A stretch of 63,535 bases of DNA from a virus (taxonomy: Duplodnaviria > Caudoviricetes), in the IMG/VR virus record IMGVR_UViG_3300021446_000257, positions 1 through 63,535 of that record. The stretch is one strand, 5' to 3'. The position numbers and the translations under genes are program-made. This document shows, in pieces, positions 52,113 to 56,517 of the stretch (positions within the stretch are counted from its first letter, which is position 1; every line of letters starts with the position of its first letter). The notes beneath the pieces were generated by a model. That model saw nothing but the letters and a program-made list of their open reading frames with translations. It did not search any database and had not been told where the DNA came from.

Positions 52113-53009
52113 CTACCCATTGTTACCTCGCTGCTGGCGGTGAGTCTCGCGTTCCCAGTCGCGGGCTTCGATGCCGCGGTCCCGCCAGTGGGCGAGTCCG
52201 TCGGCGTCGCCGTTCATGAATCGAAACAGCCCCCCGAGACGCCCGGCCTCGTAGTCCTCCGGTGCGCCGTCGCCGGTGGCGTGGGCTACTTTGTCGTAAT
52301 GGCTCAGGTACGGCGCATCGCGGTCAACGAGCAGCGACCATACGTCGCGGGCGGTCCAGTCGCGGATTGGAAACGCCGCCGGGTTGCTCATTGACTCGCC
52401 GAACAGTCCGTCGATATACCGGTCCCGGGAGCCCGACTCGGCCTTTCGCGTCCCGAGGACCTGCCGCCCGACGATGCCGCGTTCGATGGACCGGCGGAGC
52501 CGCGGCGCGAGACGTGAGACGCCACGCATCCCCGGGTCGTCGCGGACGCTTTTCGCATTCGGGAGGCGGATCTCGGTCTGCTGTTGATCGTGGTACGCAT
52601 CTGCCTCGGGATAGGGCTTGAATACCGGCATGAGCTCGTTGGCGACGAACAGCCGTTCATCGGCGACATACTCGCGGATGGAACTGACGATTTCGTGTTC
52701 GATCCGGCGGGGGAGGAAATCGGGGCCGTAGTCCCACTGGAGTGCGCGGTGGTCGGCATCGCTCTCCGACGCAAGGATGAGCGTCGCGAGCGAGTCTTTT
52801 CCGCCCGAACACGACACGACGGCATCAGCGTCGCAACGGTAGACCCGTTCGATCTCGGCTTTGGCTTGGGCGACCATCCCGGACGGCCGAAGTTGGGCGT
52901 CGTAGTGGGACTGGAACGCGCGTTCGGTCGCGTCGGGCATCCCCGCGTCGCTCGGGTCGTCGAGGTGGGGGAACGACAGGGCGTCGGCGTCGGGCGGCTC
53001 GACTACCAC
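52113..53009 (-). CDS. cysH: CysH/PAPS-reductase-like adenine nucleotide alpha-hydrolase (type IV-B associated)
   Basis: PP-loop SCSGGKDS, LGTRKAES..R, PIRDWTARDVW....R..PY...Y. Confidence 0.85.
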   Translation of the reverse strand: MVVEPPDADALSFPHLDDPSDAGMPDATERAFQSHYDAQLRPSGMVAQAKAEIERVYRCDADAVVSCSGGKDSLATLILASESDADHRALQWDYGPDFLPRRIEHEIVSSIREYVADERLFVANELMPVFKPYPEADAYHDQQQTEIRLPNAKSVRDDPGMRGVSRLAPRLRRSIERGIVGRQVLGTRKAESGSRDRYIDGLFGESMSNPAAFPIRDWTARDVWSLLVDRDAPYLSHYDKVAHATGDGAPEDYEAGRLGGLFRFMNGDADGLAHWRDRGIEARDWERETHRQQRGNNG

Positions 53010-53695
53010 GCCGGCTCAACCTCCGCGCCCGGCGGGGCGCACTCGGTGGCCCATCTTTGATAATGATAAGGACACTTCCAGGTCAGTGTCGACGATTCCG
53101 AGTACCCGTCGAGTCGGTCGGTCGGGATCGGCCGCATCGCCAGCCCGTCGGGGTGGACGAGCGACGTGTCCGCCTCCAGCTCGGTCAGCGCCCAGTCCTC
53201 AACCTTGCCGAACCCGCGCGCCGTGTGCTTGCCGAGGTCGGTCAGATGGTCGGCCAACAGCGCCTCGATCCGGTCGCGGTCGCCACGGACGTAAAACCAG
53301 CAGTATCGGGCCGCCCTGTATTTCACGTCGATCATTTGGGATTTGAACGCGCCGCCGCCGATCGGGATCTTGCTGCGCGGGCGCGGGCCACCGACCGAGT
53401 GCGCGCGCACTTCGTCGTAGCTTGAATACAGCGTCGTCGTCGCGTTTCGGTCGGTCGAGAACTGCGATGCCGAGGCGTGGGCGATGTCGTCGGTGTACGC
53501 GAGGCCGGTGTCGACGATCCCCTCCGCTCGGAGGTCGCGCGGGCCGGACTCGTCGAGCTCGGCGACGAACCGGTCGTACTCCTTCCCCTTCGCGTCGATA
53601 AGCGCCAGTCGCTCGATGAGGCTCTCGCCGTTGATCCACGGATGGCCGAGCGCGACGCCGGAGCCGAGCGTGAGCGTGAGCTGGAGGTTTTGCAT
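53003..53695 (-). CDS. csf3: Csf3 (Cas5-group RAMP)
   Basis: N-terminal beta strand, FYVRGD...I..LL, G-loop LGKHTARGFGKV..W, MRPIP, PY.W C-terminus. Confidence 0.82.
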   Translation of the reverse strand: MQNLQLTLTLGSGVALGHPWINGESLIERLALIDAKGKEYDRFVAELDESGPRDLRAEGIVDTGLAYTDDIAHASASQFSTDRNATTTLYSSYDEVRAHSVGGPRPRSKIPIGGGAFKSQMIDVKYRAARYCWFYVRGDRDRIEALLADHLTDLGKHTARGFGKVEDWALTELEADTSLVHPDGLAMRPIPTDRLDGYSESSTLTWKCPYHYQRWATECAPPGAEVEPAW

Positions 53696-54450
53696 TAGGC
53701 CACCGCCTCCTGCTCGCGGCCGTCCATCCGGTAACCCGCCTCGCGCGTCTGGAGACAGCCGAACCCGTACGAGCGCTTCGCGCCGATGCCCGTCCCGAGG
53801 AGTGCGTTCAGCACGCGGCGGTGGTGCTCGTCGCGCACCTCGTAGCCGAAATCGAACTTGCTCACGACGAGTGTGAGGTCGTTCGCCGGCGTGATCTCGA
53901 CATCCAGCGCGTAGGTCTTTTGGTGATGGTACTCCTCGAACGGGTCGGTTTCGGGTGGCTCCACGTCCGTCTCGTTGTCGACGATGCCGCGGACGGTGGC
54001 GTGGAGTGCATCGCGGAACTCGGCCATTGTGTTGTCGCGGTCCGACCAGTACGTCTGGCGGTCATCGATCGAGATGCACGCTCCCGACGCGGTAGTGATC
54101 GTGCCCGACGACCCCGGCGGTCCGACGTCGGTCTCGATAGGAGTGGCGGCGCGGGCCTCCATCACCATCGAGCCGGCGGTGATCTCGGGGGCGTCATGGA
54201 GGTCCTGCGCGATGGTTTTGAGCGTGCCGGCCGACGACGCGGCGACGAGCAACCGGATTTCGTCGCCCGCCTCGTGCTCGGGGCGATACGGCATCGGGTC
54301 GGAGAACGCGAACGGTGCGGCCCGCGTGTCGCGATTGTCGTACGGCGTCCCGTCGATGGCCTGGGCGAGCCGGCCACGGATCTTGCGGTGGTAGCGCCGC
54401 TCGTGGGCGCAGTCGCGCTCGATCCGCAGTCGGAGTAGGAGTTGGTGCAT
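53695..54450 (-). CDS. cas6: Cas6 endoribonuclease resembling haloarchaeal type I-B Cas6
   Basis: YH.KIRGR, FAFS.P.P, DVG.PG..GTI.T, SKF.FGYEVRD.HHRR.LN, G-loop GIGAKRSYGFG; start MHQLL. Confidence 0.88.
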   Translation of the reverse strand: MHQLLLRLRIERDCAHERRYHRKIRGRLAQAIDGTPYDNRDTRAAPFAFSDPMPYRPEHEAGDEIRLLVAASSAGTLKTIAQDLHDAPEITAGSMVMEARAATPIETDVGPPGSSGTITTASGACISIDDRQTYWSDRDNTMAEFRDALHATVRGIVDNETDVEPPETDPFEEYHHQKTYALDVEITPANDLTLVVSKFDFGYEVRDEHHRRVLNALLGTGIGAKRSYGFGCLQTREAGYRMDGREQEAVA

Positions 54451-55378: not shown

Positions 55379-55820
55379 CCGTTTCTACAAAGTCGCTCAG
55401 TTCGGTCGTGGTCCGTGTCGGTTCGGCGTTCGCATGGCGCGCATCGCGGTTCTCAAAGTAGCCCGTCACCGCCTCGTCGGCCTTGTTGACGAGCCAAACG
55501 CGCTCGCGGCGTAGCGTCCGCATCGCCTGCCGATTGTTCTCGGCGAGCGGGTCGAGATTCGCCGTCGGGAGTCTCGGCGACGCGAGGCCGAGTCCCTGTG
55601 CGAGTTTATCCAGCGCACCATGGACATCCCCGGCCCGCACCGCGACCGTAAGACGCTCGCCGAACGTGTCCGCGCGCGATTTCTGCTGGTTGCCGAACTG
55701 GTCCCAGTCAGTCTGCCGCCAGTATTCGGCGAGAATCGCTACCCAGTGCTGTTCAAGATTCGGTTCGTCTGTCGTCGCGTCGTCCGTGTCTGTTGCTGAT
55801 TCTGCCATGTTGTCACTCAA
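55353..55820 (-). CDS. cas11: Cas11-like small subunit
   Basis: Small alpha-helical ORF between csf1 and csf2; W...DW..F.ERL..A pattern. Confidence 0.65.
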   Translation of the reverse strand: MSDNMAESATDTDDATTDEPNLEQHWVAILAEYWRQTDWDQFGNQQKSRADTFGERLTVAVRAGDVHGALDKLAQGLGLASPRLPTANLDPLAENNRQAMRTLRRERVWLVNKADEAVTGYFENRDARHANAEPTRTTTELSDFVETDVWQHEEH

Positions 55821-56517
55821 TAAGTTGCACCGCGATGCGCCAGTCCTCGCGACCGGCGAGGCCGTCGTAACCGTCGCGACCGGTGATGCGGGCGTACTCC
55901 TCGCGAGTAAGGTCGTACCGGCCGAGGTCGCCCGCCGTCGGTCCGTGTTTGAGCGCGCGCTTGCTGATGGCGTCCTCGCGGTCGCGAAGCGTGCGCCCGA
56001 ACGCGATCATATCGGCGAGTTCGTCGCGCTCGAAGTCCACCATCCGTTTGTCGACGATGATCCGGAAGCGCTCACGCGATGTGTTCACGCGCTGTCCGGC
56101 GATCCAGCCATTCAAGACGGTCAGAAAGTCCGAACCGTCCTTGTATTGGACCATCCACGGCCCCGCGGGTGGGTCAAGGAGTGCGTCGACGAGCTCCGGG
56201 CGCTCTTTGATGACCCGCACGCCGTCGGGCGTCGCGAGCCAGTGGTATCGCCGGTAGTCCATCGCTCCGGCGAGGTAGGCACACCGGTAACACACGCCGT
56301 CGCCGTCGGCGAGCAAGTGGTGACTCGTGAACGACCCCGAAAACACGCCGTGCGTGCCTTGAAGCGGGTGGCCCGGCCCGCCGAGCCCGCAGATGCGGCA
56401 GTCGACACCCCAGGAGTCGTGCTTGGGTTCGATGACCGCTGGCGGGCGCACATCATCCGCCGCCGCGACGAGTGCCGAGAGGCGTGGGGGGTCGTCGGGG
56501 TCAGTCGGCACCGGCAT
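55813..56517 (-). CDS. csf1: Csf1 (Cas8-like large subunit)
   Basis: Zn finger CRICG...FT....L...VCYRC; LLDPP.GPW; first gene of the cas cluster. Confidence 0.75.
   Translation of the reverse strand: MPVPTDPDDPPRLSALVAAADDVRPPAVIEPKHDSWGVDCRICGLGGPGHPLQGTHGVFSGSFTSHHLLADGDGVCYRCAYLAGAMDYRRYHWLATPDGVRVIKERPELVDALLDPPAGPWMVQYKDGSDFLTVLNGWIAGQRVNTSRERFRIIVDKRMVDFERDELADMIAFGRTLRDREDAISKRALKHGPTAGDLGRYDLTREEYARITGRDGYDGLAGREDWRIAVQLIE

Follow-up and report, generated by a model that had tools for sequence, protein, structure and literature searches.

Canonical type IV-B CRISPR loci lack Cas6 and have no established function, as the original prediction stated and as excerpts of PMC7038947, PMC8175902 and PMC13676074 state. 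IV-B loci that do carry Cas6 receive a passing mention in the available part of PMC7038947: 'rare exceptions: only 12 instances'. The solved IV-B complex, from Mycobacterium, bound heterogeneous non-CRISPR RNA and did not enrich co-expressed I-E crRNAs; an 'RNA sponge' role as well as negative co-occurrence with other CRISPR systems were stated for IV-B (excerpts of PMC7937560). This Mycobacterium system does not itself encode Cas6. CasCysH was proposed to AMPylate substrates or to produce second messengers; in type IV-C, an array-less complex obtains its crRNAs from arrays at other genomic sites (both from parts of PMC13676074). Type IV-A represses transcription without a nuclease, and type IV systems have been tied to inter-plasmid conflict (PMC12669027, PMC13676074, in part). 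Among archaeal viruses, a IV-B locus without Cas6 was described in the Fuxiviridae, viruses of Bathyarchaeia, with a proposed counter-defence or inter-element role (Duan et al. 2024, PMC10848311); also, an excerpt of PMC12596717 describes a haloarchaeal provirus with an incomplete I-B system targeting other viruses.

The cassette considered here occupies positions 52113-56517 of a 63.5-kb window (the whole viral record analysed), which is an integrated tailed haloarchaeal virus of Caudoviricetes type. TerL, portal, protease, major capsid protein, tail sheath, tape measure and integrase were found by PHROG and Pfam searches. The integrase gene (84-1325) lies beside a tRNA fragment (1-53), and a 15-nt exact direct repeat (blastn-short, E 0.006) brackets the element; its plus-strand copies are the left attachment core at 41-55, inside the 3′-end of the tRNA fragment, and the right core at 63481-63495. 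The element is thus temperate. The record spans only ∼40 nt of host DNA per side, and its reported CheckV completeness is 100. The cassette sits among replication and early-type genes, such as those for a DNA methyltransferase (57855-58670) and a RepH-like replication protein (59786-62482); together with the att repeats and the structural genes, these confirm the predicted setting inside a provirus near genes of this kind.

The cassette consists of six genes, all on the minus strand, that overlap or nearly abut and encode Csf1, Cas11, Csf2, Cas6, Csf3 and a CysH-like protein. The first gene, csf1 (55813-56517), codes for a large subunit that is small and Cas8-like, and its translation shows two CxxC pairs (CRIC ... 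CYRC); this subunit matched the PADLOC Csf1 model (Csf1_0_IV, 1.4e-24), not Cas10, and matched TIGR03114 at 1.3e-7, under the NCBIfam cut-off. The csf1 ATG overlaps by 17 nt an upstream GNAT acetyltransferase gene (56501-57118, minus strand; Pfam Acetyltransf_1, 5.7e-8), for which no counterpart was found in any related locus; it belongs to the context only and is not one of the conserved cassette genes. The stop of csf1 is overlapped by cas11 (55353-55820), the gene of the type IV small subunit, a feature separating IV-B and IV-C from IV-A; the match to PADLOC Cas11_0_IV (3.8e-26) covered 110 of 114 profile positions. The Cas7 backbone subunit is encoded by csf2 (54461-55378), which overlaps the end of cas11 by 26 nt. 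Csf2 matched PADLOC Csf2_0_IV at 1.4e-70, Pfam RAMPs barely over the cut-off (23 bits versus 22.1) and TIGR03115 with 41 bits, under the cut-off of 130; by sequence profile, its nearest solved structure is the Mycobacterium IV-B Csf2 (7jhy, 1.7e-11). The ATG of cas6 (53695-54450; Cas6b family) lies 10 nt past the csf2 stop, and its 251-aa product is a 100% match to database protein P0001. The gene for the Cas5 subunit, csf3 (53003-53695; PADLOC Csf3_0_IV, 3e-43; TIGR03116 at 1.2e-9, under the NCBIfam cut-off), overlaps the cas6 stop by 1 nt.

The last gene, cysH-like or casCysH (52113-53009; 7-nt overlap with csf3), encodes a PP-loop enzyme of the ATP alpha-hydrolase type (Pfam PAPS_reduct, PF01507, 6.4e-9). 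All 26 aligned relatives carry its SGGKDS motif unchanged; the protein has just two cysteines, both N-terminal, and so lacks the catalytic C-terminal cysteine, which together with the PP-loop agrees with the description of CysH-like proteins in an excerpt of PMC8175902. The AF2 model (pLDDT 82) retrieved PAPS/APS reductases, the PAPS domain of FAD synthase and the tRNA thiolases TtuA/NcsA in a Foldseek search (E ∼1e-5).

All six gene identities proposed from the letters alone were upheld by PADLOC, Pfam and NCBIfam profile searches, with AF2/Foldseek added for Cas6 and the CysH-like protein; the proposed tight coupling was seen too, every junction being an overlap or a gap of at most 10 nt. 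The Pfam search gave no match for csf1, cas11 or csf3, and the NCBIfam search gave none for Cas11. The NCBIfam type IV and Cas6 equivalog models that matched did so under their curated cut-offs in every case; therefore, we consider the cassette proteins divergent family members. The cassette amounts to a full type IV-B effector set without an array, csf1-cas11-csf2-csf3 plus casCysH, with an extra cas6 between csf2 and csf3. Csf1, Cas11, Csf2, Csf3 and the adjacent PP-loop cysH-like gene are among the traits that define IV-B membership, as is the absence of an array, adaptation genes, a Cas10-HD subunit and a DinG/RecD helicase, the last looked for here as Helicase_C_2; the lack of Cas6, also part of the IV-B definition, does not hold here. 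As the literature admits rare Cas6-bearing exceptions (PMC7038947, in part), we characterized the locus as a IV-B variant, still within IV-B.

No CRISPR-like repeat pairs were detected in the 63.5-kb window; three host I-B repeat variants had no match there at up to 33% mismatches, and a CRISPR-DR family search of 48000-63535 with an E limit of 5 found nothing. Searches for Cas1, Cas2 and Helicase_C_2 (DinG-type) found none in the record; the same searches found positive controls in 7, 6 and 12 of 14 control genomes, respectively. The repeat and domain searches of the record thus agree with the predicted absence of an array, adaptation genes, nuclease and DinG. CRISPR repeats were also not found in the related loci or in a second virus (57.6 kb).

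Within the haloarchaeal I-B Cas6b family, the Cas6 protein is divergent and falls into a clade of its own. It matched the PADLOC Cas6b model PDLC01785 at 7.2e-54; the host I-B Cas6b used for comparison, from a cas6b-cas8b-cas7b-cas5b-cas3b locus with arrays on the flanks, matched the same model at 1.3e-136. The Pfam match to Cas_Cas6_C was slightly over the cut-off. With the AF2 model (pLDDT 89, pTM 0.86), Foldseek found 101 PDB matches at E ≤ 0.001; the top matches listed were all of Cas6/Cse3 type, led by 3qjj (E 3.4e-14, TM 0.70; best TM 0.70-0.72). Full-length matches with 33-42% identity were present in 125 of 401 sampled Halobacteria genomes. A family search with the window Cas6 retrieved 38 proteins with 45-100% identity (100% being the window's own protein), and an alignment of 28 of them has 28 invariant columns; a branch with SH-aLRT 100 splits this clade from 11 host Cas6 proteins.

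At the column of the Haloferax catalytic residue His-41, the window Cas6 has Arg beside a one-residue gap, a placement that comes from alignment only. The family (n=37) shows 14 His, 17 Arg, 3 Gln, 1 Asp, 1 Tyr and 1 Cys in this column, which takes at least five state changes on the Cas6 tree; all 11 host Cas6 proteins have His there. Every one of the 38 family members, the window's included, retains the glycine-rich loop GxGxxRxYGFG. According to an excerpt of PMC3945376, the Haloferax H41A mutant has 37% of crRNA left and weakened interference, Gly-256 and Gly-258 (equivalents of the glycine-rich loop) are essential, and one Sulfolobus Cas6 functions without histidine. Other basic residues might stand in for the catalytic His. 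Of the 'crRNA-processing/binding' role originally predicted, processing is doubtful for this copy because Arg aligns with His-41; still, the His kept in 14 of 37 proteins, the residual crRNA of H41A and the His-less Sulfolobus enzyme mean that cleavage could occur.

Comparison of related loci showed that the cassette is a mobile unit common to haloarchaeal viruses, plasmids and unclassified contigs. Gene order and content were kept in seven further loci, with protein identities of 44-78% (Csf1 60-65%, Cas11 49-59%, Csf3 64-74%); the intergenic gaps vary from locus to locus, and no conserved non-coding element was seen beside the cassette across these loci. The cas6 gene stands between csf2 and csf3 in seven of the eight loci where this junction is visible; one of the Cas6-bearing loci lies on the contig of another tailed virus, a distant relative. 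Between the two viruses, cassette proteins are 44-72% identical, in contrast to only 31-37% for capsid, portal, protease and RepH-like proteins. All nine distinct loci that reach past csf3 include the cysH-like gene. The sole cas6-less locus of the eight is an Actinarchaeum plasmid, whose host carries its own I-B Cas6 and arrays. In the Csf2 tree this plasmid locus is nested within Cas6-bearing loci, though with intermediate forks at SH-aLRT of only 83-90, which points to an older gain of cas6 with later loss. Thus, the idea that this virus had gained Cas6 did not survive: Cas6 is the rule in the haloarchaeal IV-B clade. Whether Cas6-containing IV-B loci are common and already described had been raised as a possible objection; they are usual in this clade and have been counted in print, the printed count being just the '12 instances' (PMC7038947, in part).

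What could such a cassette do? The original prediction had host crRNAs loaded into the complex, as an anti-CRISPR or to direct the CysH-like enzyme; this loading and both outcomes are conjecture. The reading that we favour, with a probability of about 0.35, is that Cas6 draws repeat RNA of the host into a Csf complex devoid of nuclease, most likely as a means of counter-defence. The viral Cas6, produced at an early stage of infection or by the provirus, would bind I-B-type repeat RNA of the host (pre-crRNA or the 3′ handle of crRNA); having lost the key His and kept the glycine-rich loop, it would, judging by these residues, mainly hold RNA rather than cut it. On the held RNA, Cas6 would seed the build-up of a complex from Csf3, Csf1 and the Csf2/Cas11 filament, and the resulting particle would draw guides off the host Cascade-Cas3; the PP-loop enzyme might adenylate or otherwise modify the bound nucleic acid, or make a signal. 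We counted in favour of guide capture the Cas6b kinship with host I-B, the lack of repeats of its own in the window and the second virus, the early-type gene setting, crRNA recruitment by IV-C (PMC13676074, in part) and the IV-B sponge idea (PMC7937560, in part). An intact cas6 in the same position in seven of eight loci and the 28 invariant Cas6 columns were counted for selection on the cassette. The crRNA result for the Cas6-less Mycobacterium complex (PMC7937560, in part) speaks against guide capture, and the 14 of 37 proteins with His, the 37% crRNA of H41A and the Sulfolobus enzyme (PMC3945376, in part) against a Cas6 that only binds.

A 4.4-kb six-gene cassette would make a costly inhibitor; known anti-CRISPRs are small single proteins. 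A pure sponge would also leave the conserved CysH-like enzyme without a role, and crippled host immunity would expose the lysogen of the integrated provirus too. One could speculate that the whole cassette is a ribonucleoprotein anti-CRISPR, in which a His-less Cas6b decoy clamps I-B repeat RNA, the Csf2/Cas11 filament locks guides or pre-crRNA away from Cascade, and the CysH-like enzyme marks the RNA; in this full form we regard the proposal as unlikely. If true, it would be the first demonstrated IV-B function and would make IV-B systems offensive tools of mobile elements.

Guides taken from the host might instead be put to use, with Cas6 processing or picking up host crRNAs and Csf binding and silencing competing viruses or plasmids without cleavage, a protection of the lysogen resembling superinfection exclusion, in which the CysH-like enzyme might mark the target; we consider this doubtful. 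Nuclease-free repression by IV-A and inter-plasmid conflict (PMC12669027, PMC13676074), IV-C crRNAs taken from arrays elsewhere (PMC13676074) and the haloarchaeal provirus targeting other viruses (PMC12596717), all seen in excerpts, would fit such borrowing, as would the temperate element and the 14 of 37 proteins with catalytic His; however, the window Cas6 is without this His, the record has no DinG-like helicase partner, and the Mycobacterium complex was not loaded with crRNA (PMC7937560, in part). Furthermore, with host spacers as guides the particle would go for targets that Cascade-Cas3 already destroys, so that borrowing would be redundant with the host I-B effector and add little defence, and removal of guides would help the virus. 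The cas6-less plasmid in a host with I-B Cas6 and arrays fits borrowing and sequestration equally. It is also rather improbable, in our view, that the cassette works independently of arrays, with Cas6 recognising a non-CRISPR viral or cellular RNA, thus adding specificity only, and the Csf filament and PP-loop enzyme modifying (e.g. AMPylating) it, storing it or signalling, a role of the sort put forward for canonical IV-B. The heterogeneous RNA in the solved complex (PMC7937560), the activities proposed for CasCysH (PMC13676074; both in part), the cysH-like gene in nine of nine loci and the lack of repeats in the window, the second virus and other loci suggest this, as does a MAG with a Cas6-bearing cassette where a second Cas6 was not found (the MAG may be incomplete). 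Against it, Cas6 is full-length kin of the repeat-specific I-B Cas6b with the loop that Haloferax needs for crRNA production intact, and no conserved non-coding element accompanies the cassette. A decaying remnant, functionless cargo with cas6 as a degenerating passenger, is very improbable and was already disfavoured: the His is gone from most family members and array and nuclease are lacking, but all six reading frames are unbroken and coupled in translation, order and content are held in seven further loci, the cassette is better conserved between the viruses than capsid, portal, protease and RepH-like proteins, and Cas6 keeps its loop and invariant columns.

Guide sequestration by a Cas6-bearing viral cassette, our preferred reading, could open IV-B function to testing. 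New here are the recurring placement of cas6, the separate Cas6 clade, and the combination of a variable His-41 position with a constant glycine-rich loop. Pyrococcus horikoshii PH0350 (3qjj/3qjl/3qjp), a non-catalytic Cas6 that binds repeat RNA and is not known to cleave it, is the best solved match of the window Cas6 by both profile and fold, at only 13-15% identity; unlike the window Cas6, it is neither virus-borne nor part of a type IV operon. Haloferax volcanii Cas6b (Brendel et al. 2014, PMC3945376, in part) shares the fold class and the glycine-rich loop, and haloarchaeal Cas6b in general the PADLOC model and full-length homology; the window Cas6 differs in its separate clade and in the clade-variable Arg for His-41, and its gene sits in a type IV operon, not, like host cas6b, beside an array or cas8b/cas7/cas5. 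Type IV-C1 of Thermococcus onnurineus is likewise array-less, has Cas11 and may encode Cas6 in the locus, whereas its large subunit is a Cas10-like HD nuclease, the locus is chromosomal and it has no CysH-like gene (PMC13676074). The Fuxiviridae locus is again that of an archaeal virus with csf1, cas11, csf2, csf3 and a CysH-like gene; it has a two-repeat mini-array and PMC10848311 mentions Cas6 zero times, whereas the window cassette has Cas6 and no array, and the host classes of the two viruses differ. With Mycobacterium sp. JS623 IV-B (7jhy; Pinilla-Redondo 2020) the cassette shares csf1, cas11, csf2 and csf3 as well as a cysH-like neighbour. Canonical IV-B loci and the cassette alike are borne by mobile elements and lack an array, adaptation genes, nuclease and DinG; what sets the cassette apart is a cas6 within the operon, an archaeal tailed virus as carrier and proteins under the NCBIfam equivalog cut-offs.

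The interval 52113–56517 is filled by six minus-strand reading frames, with neighbours either overlapping or lying 10 nt apart. Gene names were taken from PADLOC profiles, with Pfam and NCBIfam equivalog models run alongside. Five frames were named in this way, csf1 (Csf1, 1.4e-24), cas11 (type IV Cas11, 3.8e-26), csf2 (Csf2, 1.4e-70), cas6 (Cas6b, 7.2e-54) and csf3 (Csf3, 3e-43); the sixth, a cysH-like gene, was named by Pfam PAPS_reduct (6.4e-9) and had only weak DndC-type matches in PADLOC. The originally predicted order, csf1-cas11-csf2-cas6-csf3-cysH-like, was thus confirmed. 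The NCBIfam equivalogs for Csf1, Csf2, Csf3 and Cas6 all matched with scores well under the curated cut-offs, and the Pfam search of Csf1, Cas11 and Csf3 gave zero matches; we therefore characterized the cassette proteins as divergent members.

A Csf2 profile made from 25 relatives had the Mycobacterium IV-B Csf2 (7jhy, 1.7e-11) as its best solved relative, ranked above a chain named Cas7c and above a IV-A Csf2. Two CxxC pairs were present in the Csf1 translation. In complex prediction for Csf2 with Cas6 (two alignments), the control score was nearly equal to the Csf2-Cas6 score.

The AF2 model of the window Cas6 (pLDDT 89) had Cas6 proteins as its best Foldseek matches, 3qjj (E 3.4e-14, TM 0.70) and then Pyrococcus furiosus Cas6, with Cas6b 4z7k and the IV-A Cas6 6njy further down. 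PADLOC model PDLC01785 matched both this protein (7.2e-54) and a host Cas6 (1.3e-136) whose gene heads a cas6b-cas8b-cas7b-cas5b-cas3b locus, with arrays of 31-nt repeats on both sides, while the ‘typeIV_Cas6’ model was not among the PADLOC matches of the window protein. Judged from these profile matches, the kin of the window Cas6 is the haloarchaeal I-B Cas6b, not Csf5/Cas6 of type IV-A. In a Cas6 tree, from which two family fragments were left out, 36 family members were split from 11 host proteins by a branch with SH-aLRT 100. The Cas6 family is linked to IV-B by gene context in the mapped loci, and such a link is suggested for ten more clusters by longest contigs of identical length.

Mutation H41A in the Haloferax Cas6 leaves 37% of crRNA, as given in the available text of Brendel et al. 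(PMC3945376). The corresponding column holds His in all 11 host proteins; among the 37 family members possessing the column we saw 14 His (the copy of locus L010 is one that keeps it), 17 Arg (the window Cas6 included), 3 Gln, 1 Asp, 1 Tyr and 1 Cys, a distribution that requires at least five changes on the Cas6 tree. The glycine-rich loop, on the other hand, was present in 38 of 38 family members. A fixed RNA-binding loop combined with a free catalytic residue is the pattern one would expect of a protein selected mainly for binding; it does not prove inactivity.

The SGGKDS motif of the CysH-like enzyme was invariant in 26 relatives, and a C-terminal cysteine was absent from the translation. 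Its model (pLDDT 82) matched folds of PAPS/APS reductases, the PAPS domain of FAD synthase and the tRNA thiolases TtuA/NcsA (E ∼1e-5, TM 0.4–0.6).

Relatives of the cassette were found by pattern scans with the Csf2 alignment: one IMG/VR contig, six metagenome contigs and two loci in species-representative genomes, one on a contig of a Halobacteriales MAG and one on plasmid NZ_CP071309 of Actinarchaeum halophilum. The six cassette proteins were mapped onto these loci. One contig ends inside csf2, with its csf2-csf3 junction out of sight; at the eight distinct loci with a visible junction cas6 lay between csf2 and csf3 in seven, the exception being the A. halophilum plasmid. Identity to the window proteins was 66–78% for Csf2, 64–74% for Csf3, 60–65% for Csf1, 49–59% for Cas11, 46–58.5% for Cas6 and 44–49% for the CysH-like protein. 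One metagenome contig (L005) has an insertion between cas6 and csf3, at 3060–3826, made up of two small ORFs (171 and 84 aa); the second has a C-terminal CxxC...CxxC.

The original prediction had the window virus gaining cas6. In a quick Csf2 tree the plasmid protein, whose locus lacks cas6, was nested in a crown clade (SH-aLRT 95) of Cas6-bearing loci, with the forks separating it from them at just 83–90 SH-aLRT. Because of this nesting, and with cas6 at seven of eight junctions, it appears likelier that cas6 was gained long ago and later lost on the way to the plasmid than that the window virus acquired it. Some 1–3 kb downstream of the plasmid cassette, at 3854–6192 of that locus (L001), the record annotation places a second PAPS-reductase-family gene beside a gene with a ParB N-terminal domain; the two may form a separate pair. 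We also observed that the MAG with a Cas6-bearing cassette (G002, locus L003) had no second Cas6 in sight, while Actinarchaeum itself has a Cas6 on its chromosome (35% identity) and two arrays close to it; these single cases hint that cassette and host Cas6 are complementary.

The IMG/VR relative (G403, 57.6 kb) has a terminase match containing one in-frame TGA. Identity to the window is 31–37% for the capsid, portal, protease and RepH-like proteins, compared with 44–72% for the cassette proteins. These values mark the contig as a tailed virus of distant kinship, and the cassette would have either moved between virus lineages or been held far more tightly than the virion genes; the comparison suggests transfer. 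Nine flanking ORFs of two related loci (L011 and L008) matched, in a PHROG scan, a transposase, regulators of the HTH type and families without known function, none of which assigns these elements to a class.

Among sequenced organisms the cassette is rare. In the matches listed for 401 sampled Halobacteria genomes, long DNA matches came from the Actinarchaeum plasmid only (others were ≤111 nt), and the window Cas6, matched in 125 of the 401, never exceeded 42% identity over full length. Cassette DNA had no match in 50,697 phage records; at the protein level the sole match was a weak Csf2-like one in Skermania phage SPI1, which covered 45% of the query at 31% identity.

A general repeat search of the window found no array-like repeats, and exact repeat pairs of ≥16 nt with 45–110 nt spacing were absent from the window, from the related loci (L001–L011) and from the 57.6-kb second virus. 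Host I-B repeats, taken from arrays adjoining host cas6 genes, did not match either virus (at best 12 mismatches in 30–31 nt), and an Rfam E-value scan near the cassette showed no CRISPR-DR family. Domain scans of the window detected neither Cas1, Cas2 nor a DinG-type helicase domain, whereas the positive controls were detected. The predicted lack of an array, cas1/2 and DinG was therefore upheld. The gap after cysH varies by locus (188 nt in the window, ∼51 and ∼88 nt in two others); on comparing these gaps between loci no common element, such as a hidden guide RNA, was evident.

The 63,535-base record is classed as a virus, with CheckV completeness 100. It starts inside a tRNA (positions 1–53) followed by a tyrosine-type integrase, and an exact 15-nt repeat (41–55 and 63481–63495) flanks the element. 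We found genes for TerL, portal, protease, major capsid protein, tail sheath and tape measure; the replication protein (898 aa) is 27–33% identical to RepH of phiCh1, phiH and ChaoS9. Upstream the cassette is bordered by genes for a DNA methyltransferase and a GNAT protein, downstream by a small HTH gene, and the cassette and these neighbours share the strand of the RepH-like gene; its predicted placement inside the replication/early region of the provirus is thus a fair description. The GNAT acetyltransferase gene (56501–57118, minus strand) encodes a Cys-rich C-terminal tail and shares 17 nt with the start of csf1; it is missing from all related loci, and is therefore a virus-specific neighbour rather than a part of the cassette.

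Several other features of the provirus were seen. A complete tRNA-Gln (anticodon TTG; 49721–49795, minus strand), located between the packaging genes and the cassette region, is apparently virus-encoded, judging by its position inside the provirus; the ORF call overlapping it (49275–49910) is probably over-extended. Diverged direct repeats at 4538–4765 and 10260–10487 (72–84% identity), separated by 5722 nt, lie within paralogous coding regions, 4495–5232 and 10208–10909; the repeats themselves hold Cys/His-rich stretches. The tail-fibre region has two ∼105-nt direct repeat pairs, 26389–26493/28244–28348 (98% identical) and 27183–27288/27354–27459 (81% identical); these could be either domain repeats or a cassette for recombination. 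The gene at 62489–63376 (minus strand), immediately internal to the att repeat on the right side of the provirus, encodes a CoiA-like nuclease domain (Pfam 1.2e-5).

Two tailed viruses and other elements share a conserved and mobile IV-B cassette that has a Cas6b-derived subunit and no array. Its Cas6 would most likely recognise host I-B-type repeat RNA and, on that RNA, would seed the Csf complex. Counter-defence is the reading we favour, tentatively and with a probability of roughly 0.35, because host guides in a nuclease-less particle would merely duplicate the work of host Cascade-Cas3, because the histidine is dispensable in the Cas6 clade, and because the cassette adjoins early-type genes. 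Against it, a provirus would pay a cost if its own host were blinded, the CysH-like enzyme is left without an assigned role, and the record gives just ∼40 nt outside each att core to tell the host by.

Also against counter-defence, no loading of crRNAs was seen with the Mycobacterium IV-B complex, according to the available text of PMC7937560. Action of the cassette on RNA other than that of CRISPR, and borrowing of host guides for conflicts between mobile elements, are rivals that we hold equally probable and each less so than counter-defence. Decay would be very improbable. The loop of Cas6 is strictly kept, and the patchy loss of the histidine beside it makes for a falsifiable prediction, namely binding without cutting. 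The cassette appears to move between viruses and plasmids.

Type IV-B is the sole widespread CRISPR-Cas subtype without known function, and the central issue is whether its complexes use CRISPR RNAs. In the text available, its function and complete architecture were still called unclear in September 2026 (PMC13676074), and neither that IV-C paper nor the accessible part of the 2025 classification update (PMC12669027) gives a function. A conserved haloarchaeal clade with a I-B Cas6b relative in the operon provides a genetic tie of IV-B to repeat RNA, and the group includes a good genetic model in Haloferax volcanii, where Cas6 mutants of the I-B system have been mapped.

Twelve instances of Cas6-bearing IV-B loci were already counted in the available part of PMC7038947. 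Our literature search turned up no account of IV-B with Cas6 from haloarchaea or viruses, and some of those 12 loci may belong to the window clade. The architecture was glimpsed earlier in print; what appears to be new is that it is conserved as a clade, that its Cas6 shows I-B kinship and the histidine pattern given above, and that haloarchaeal tailed viruses carry it. The accessible text of a 2025 paper concerns provirus-borne systems of haloarchaea that are I-B, not type IV (PMC12596717). A 2024 paper described IV-B in Bathyarchaeia viruses, stating that type IV had been unseen in archaeal viruses before (PMC10848311); ours is a second archaeal virus lineage with IV-B. The Bathyarchaeia virus system has a mini-array and Cas6 is never mentioned, whereas the window cassette has no array and carries Cas6. 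Its CysH-like enzyme agrees with the published CasCysH, described in the available text as a PP-loop ATP alpha-hydrolase without the sulfonucleotide-reducing cysteine (PMC8175902), in both the PP-loop motif and the missing C-terminal cysteine.
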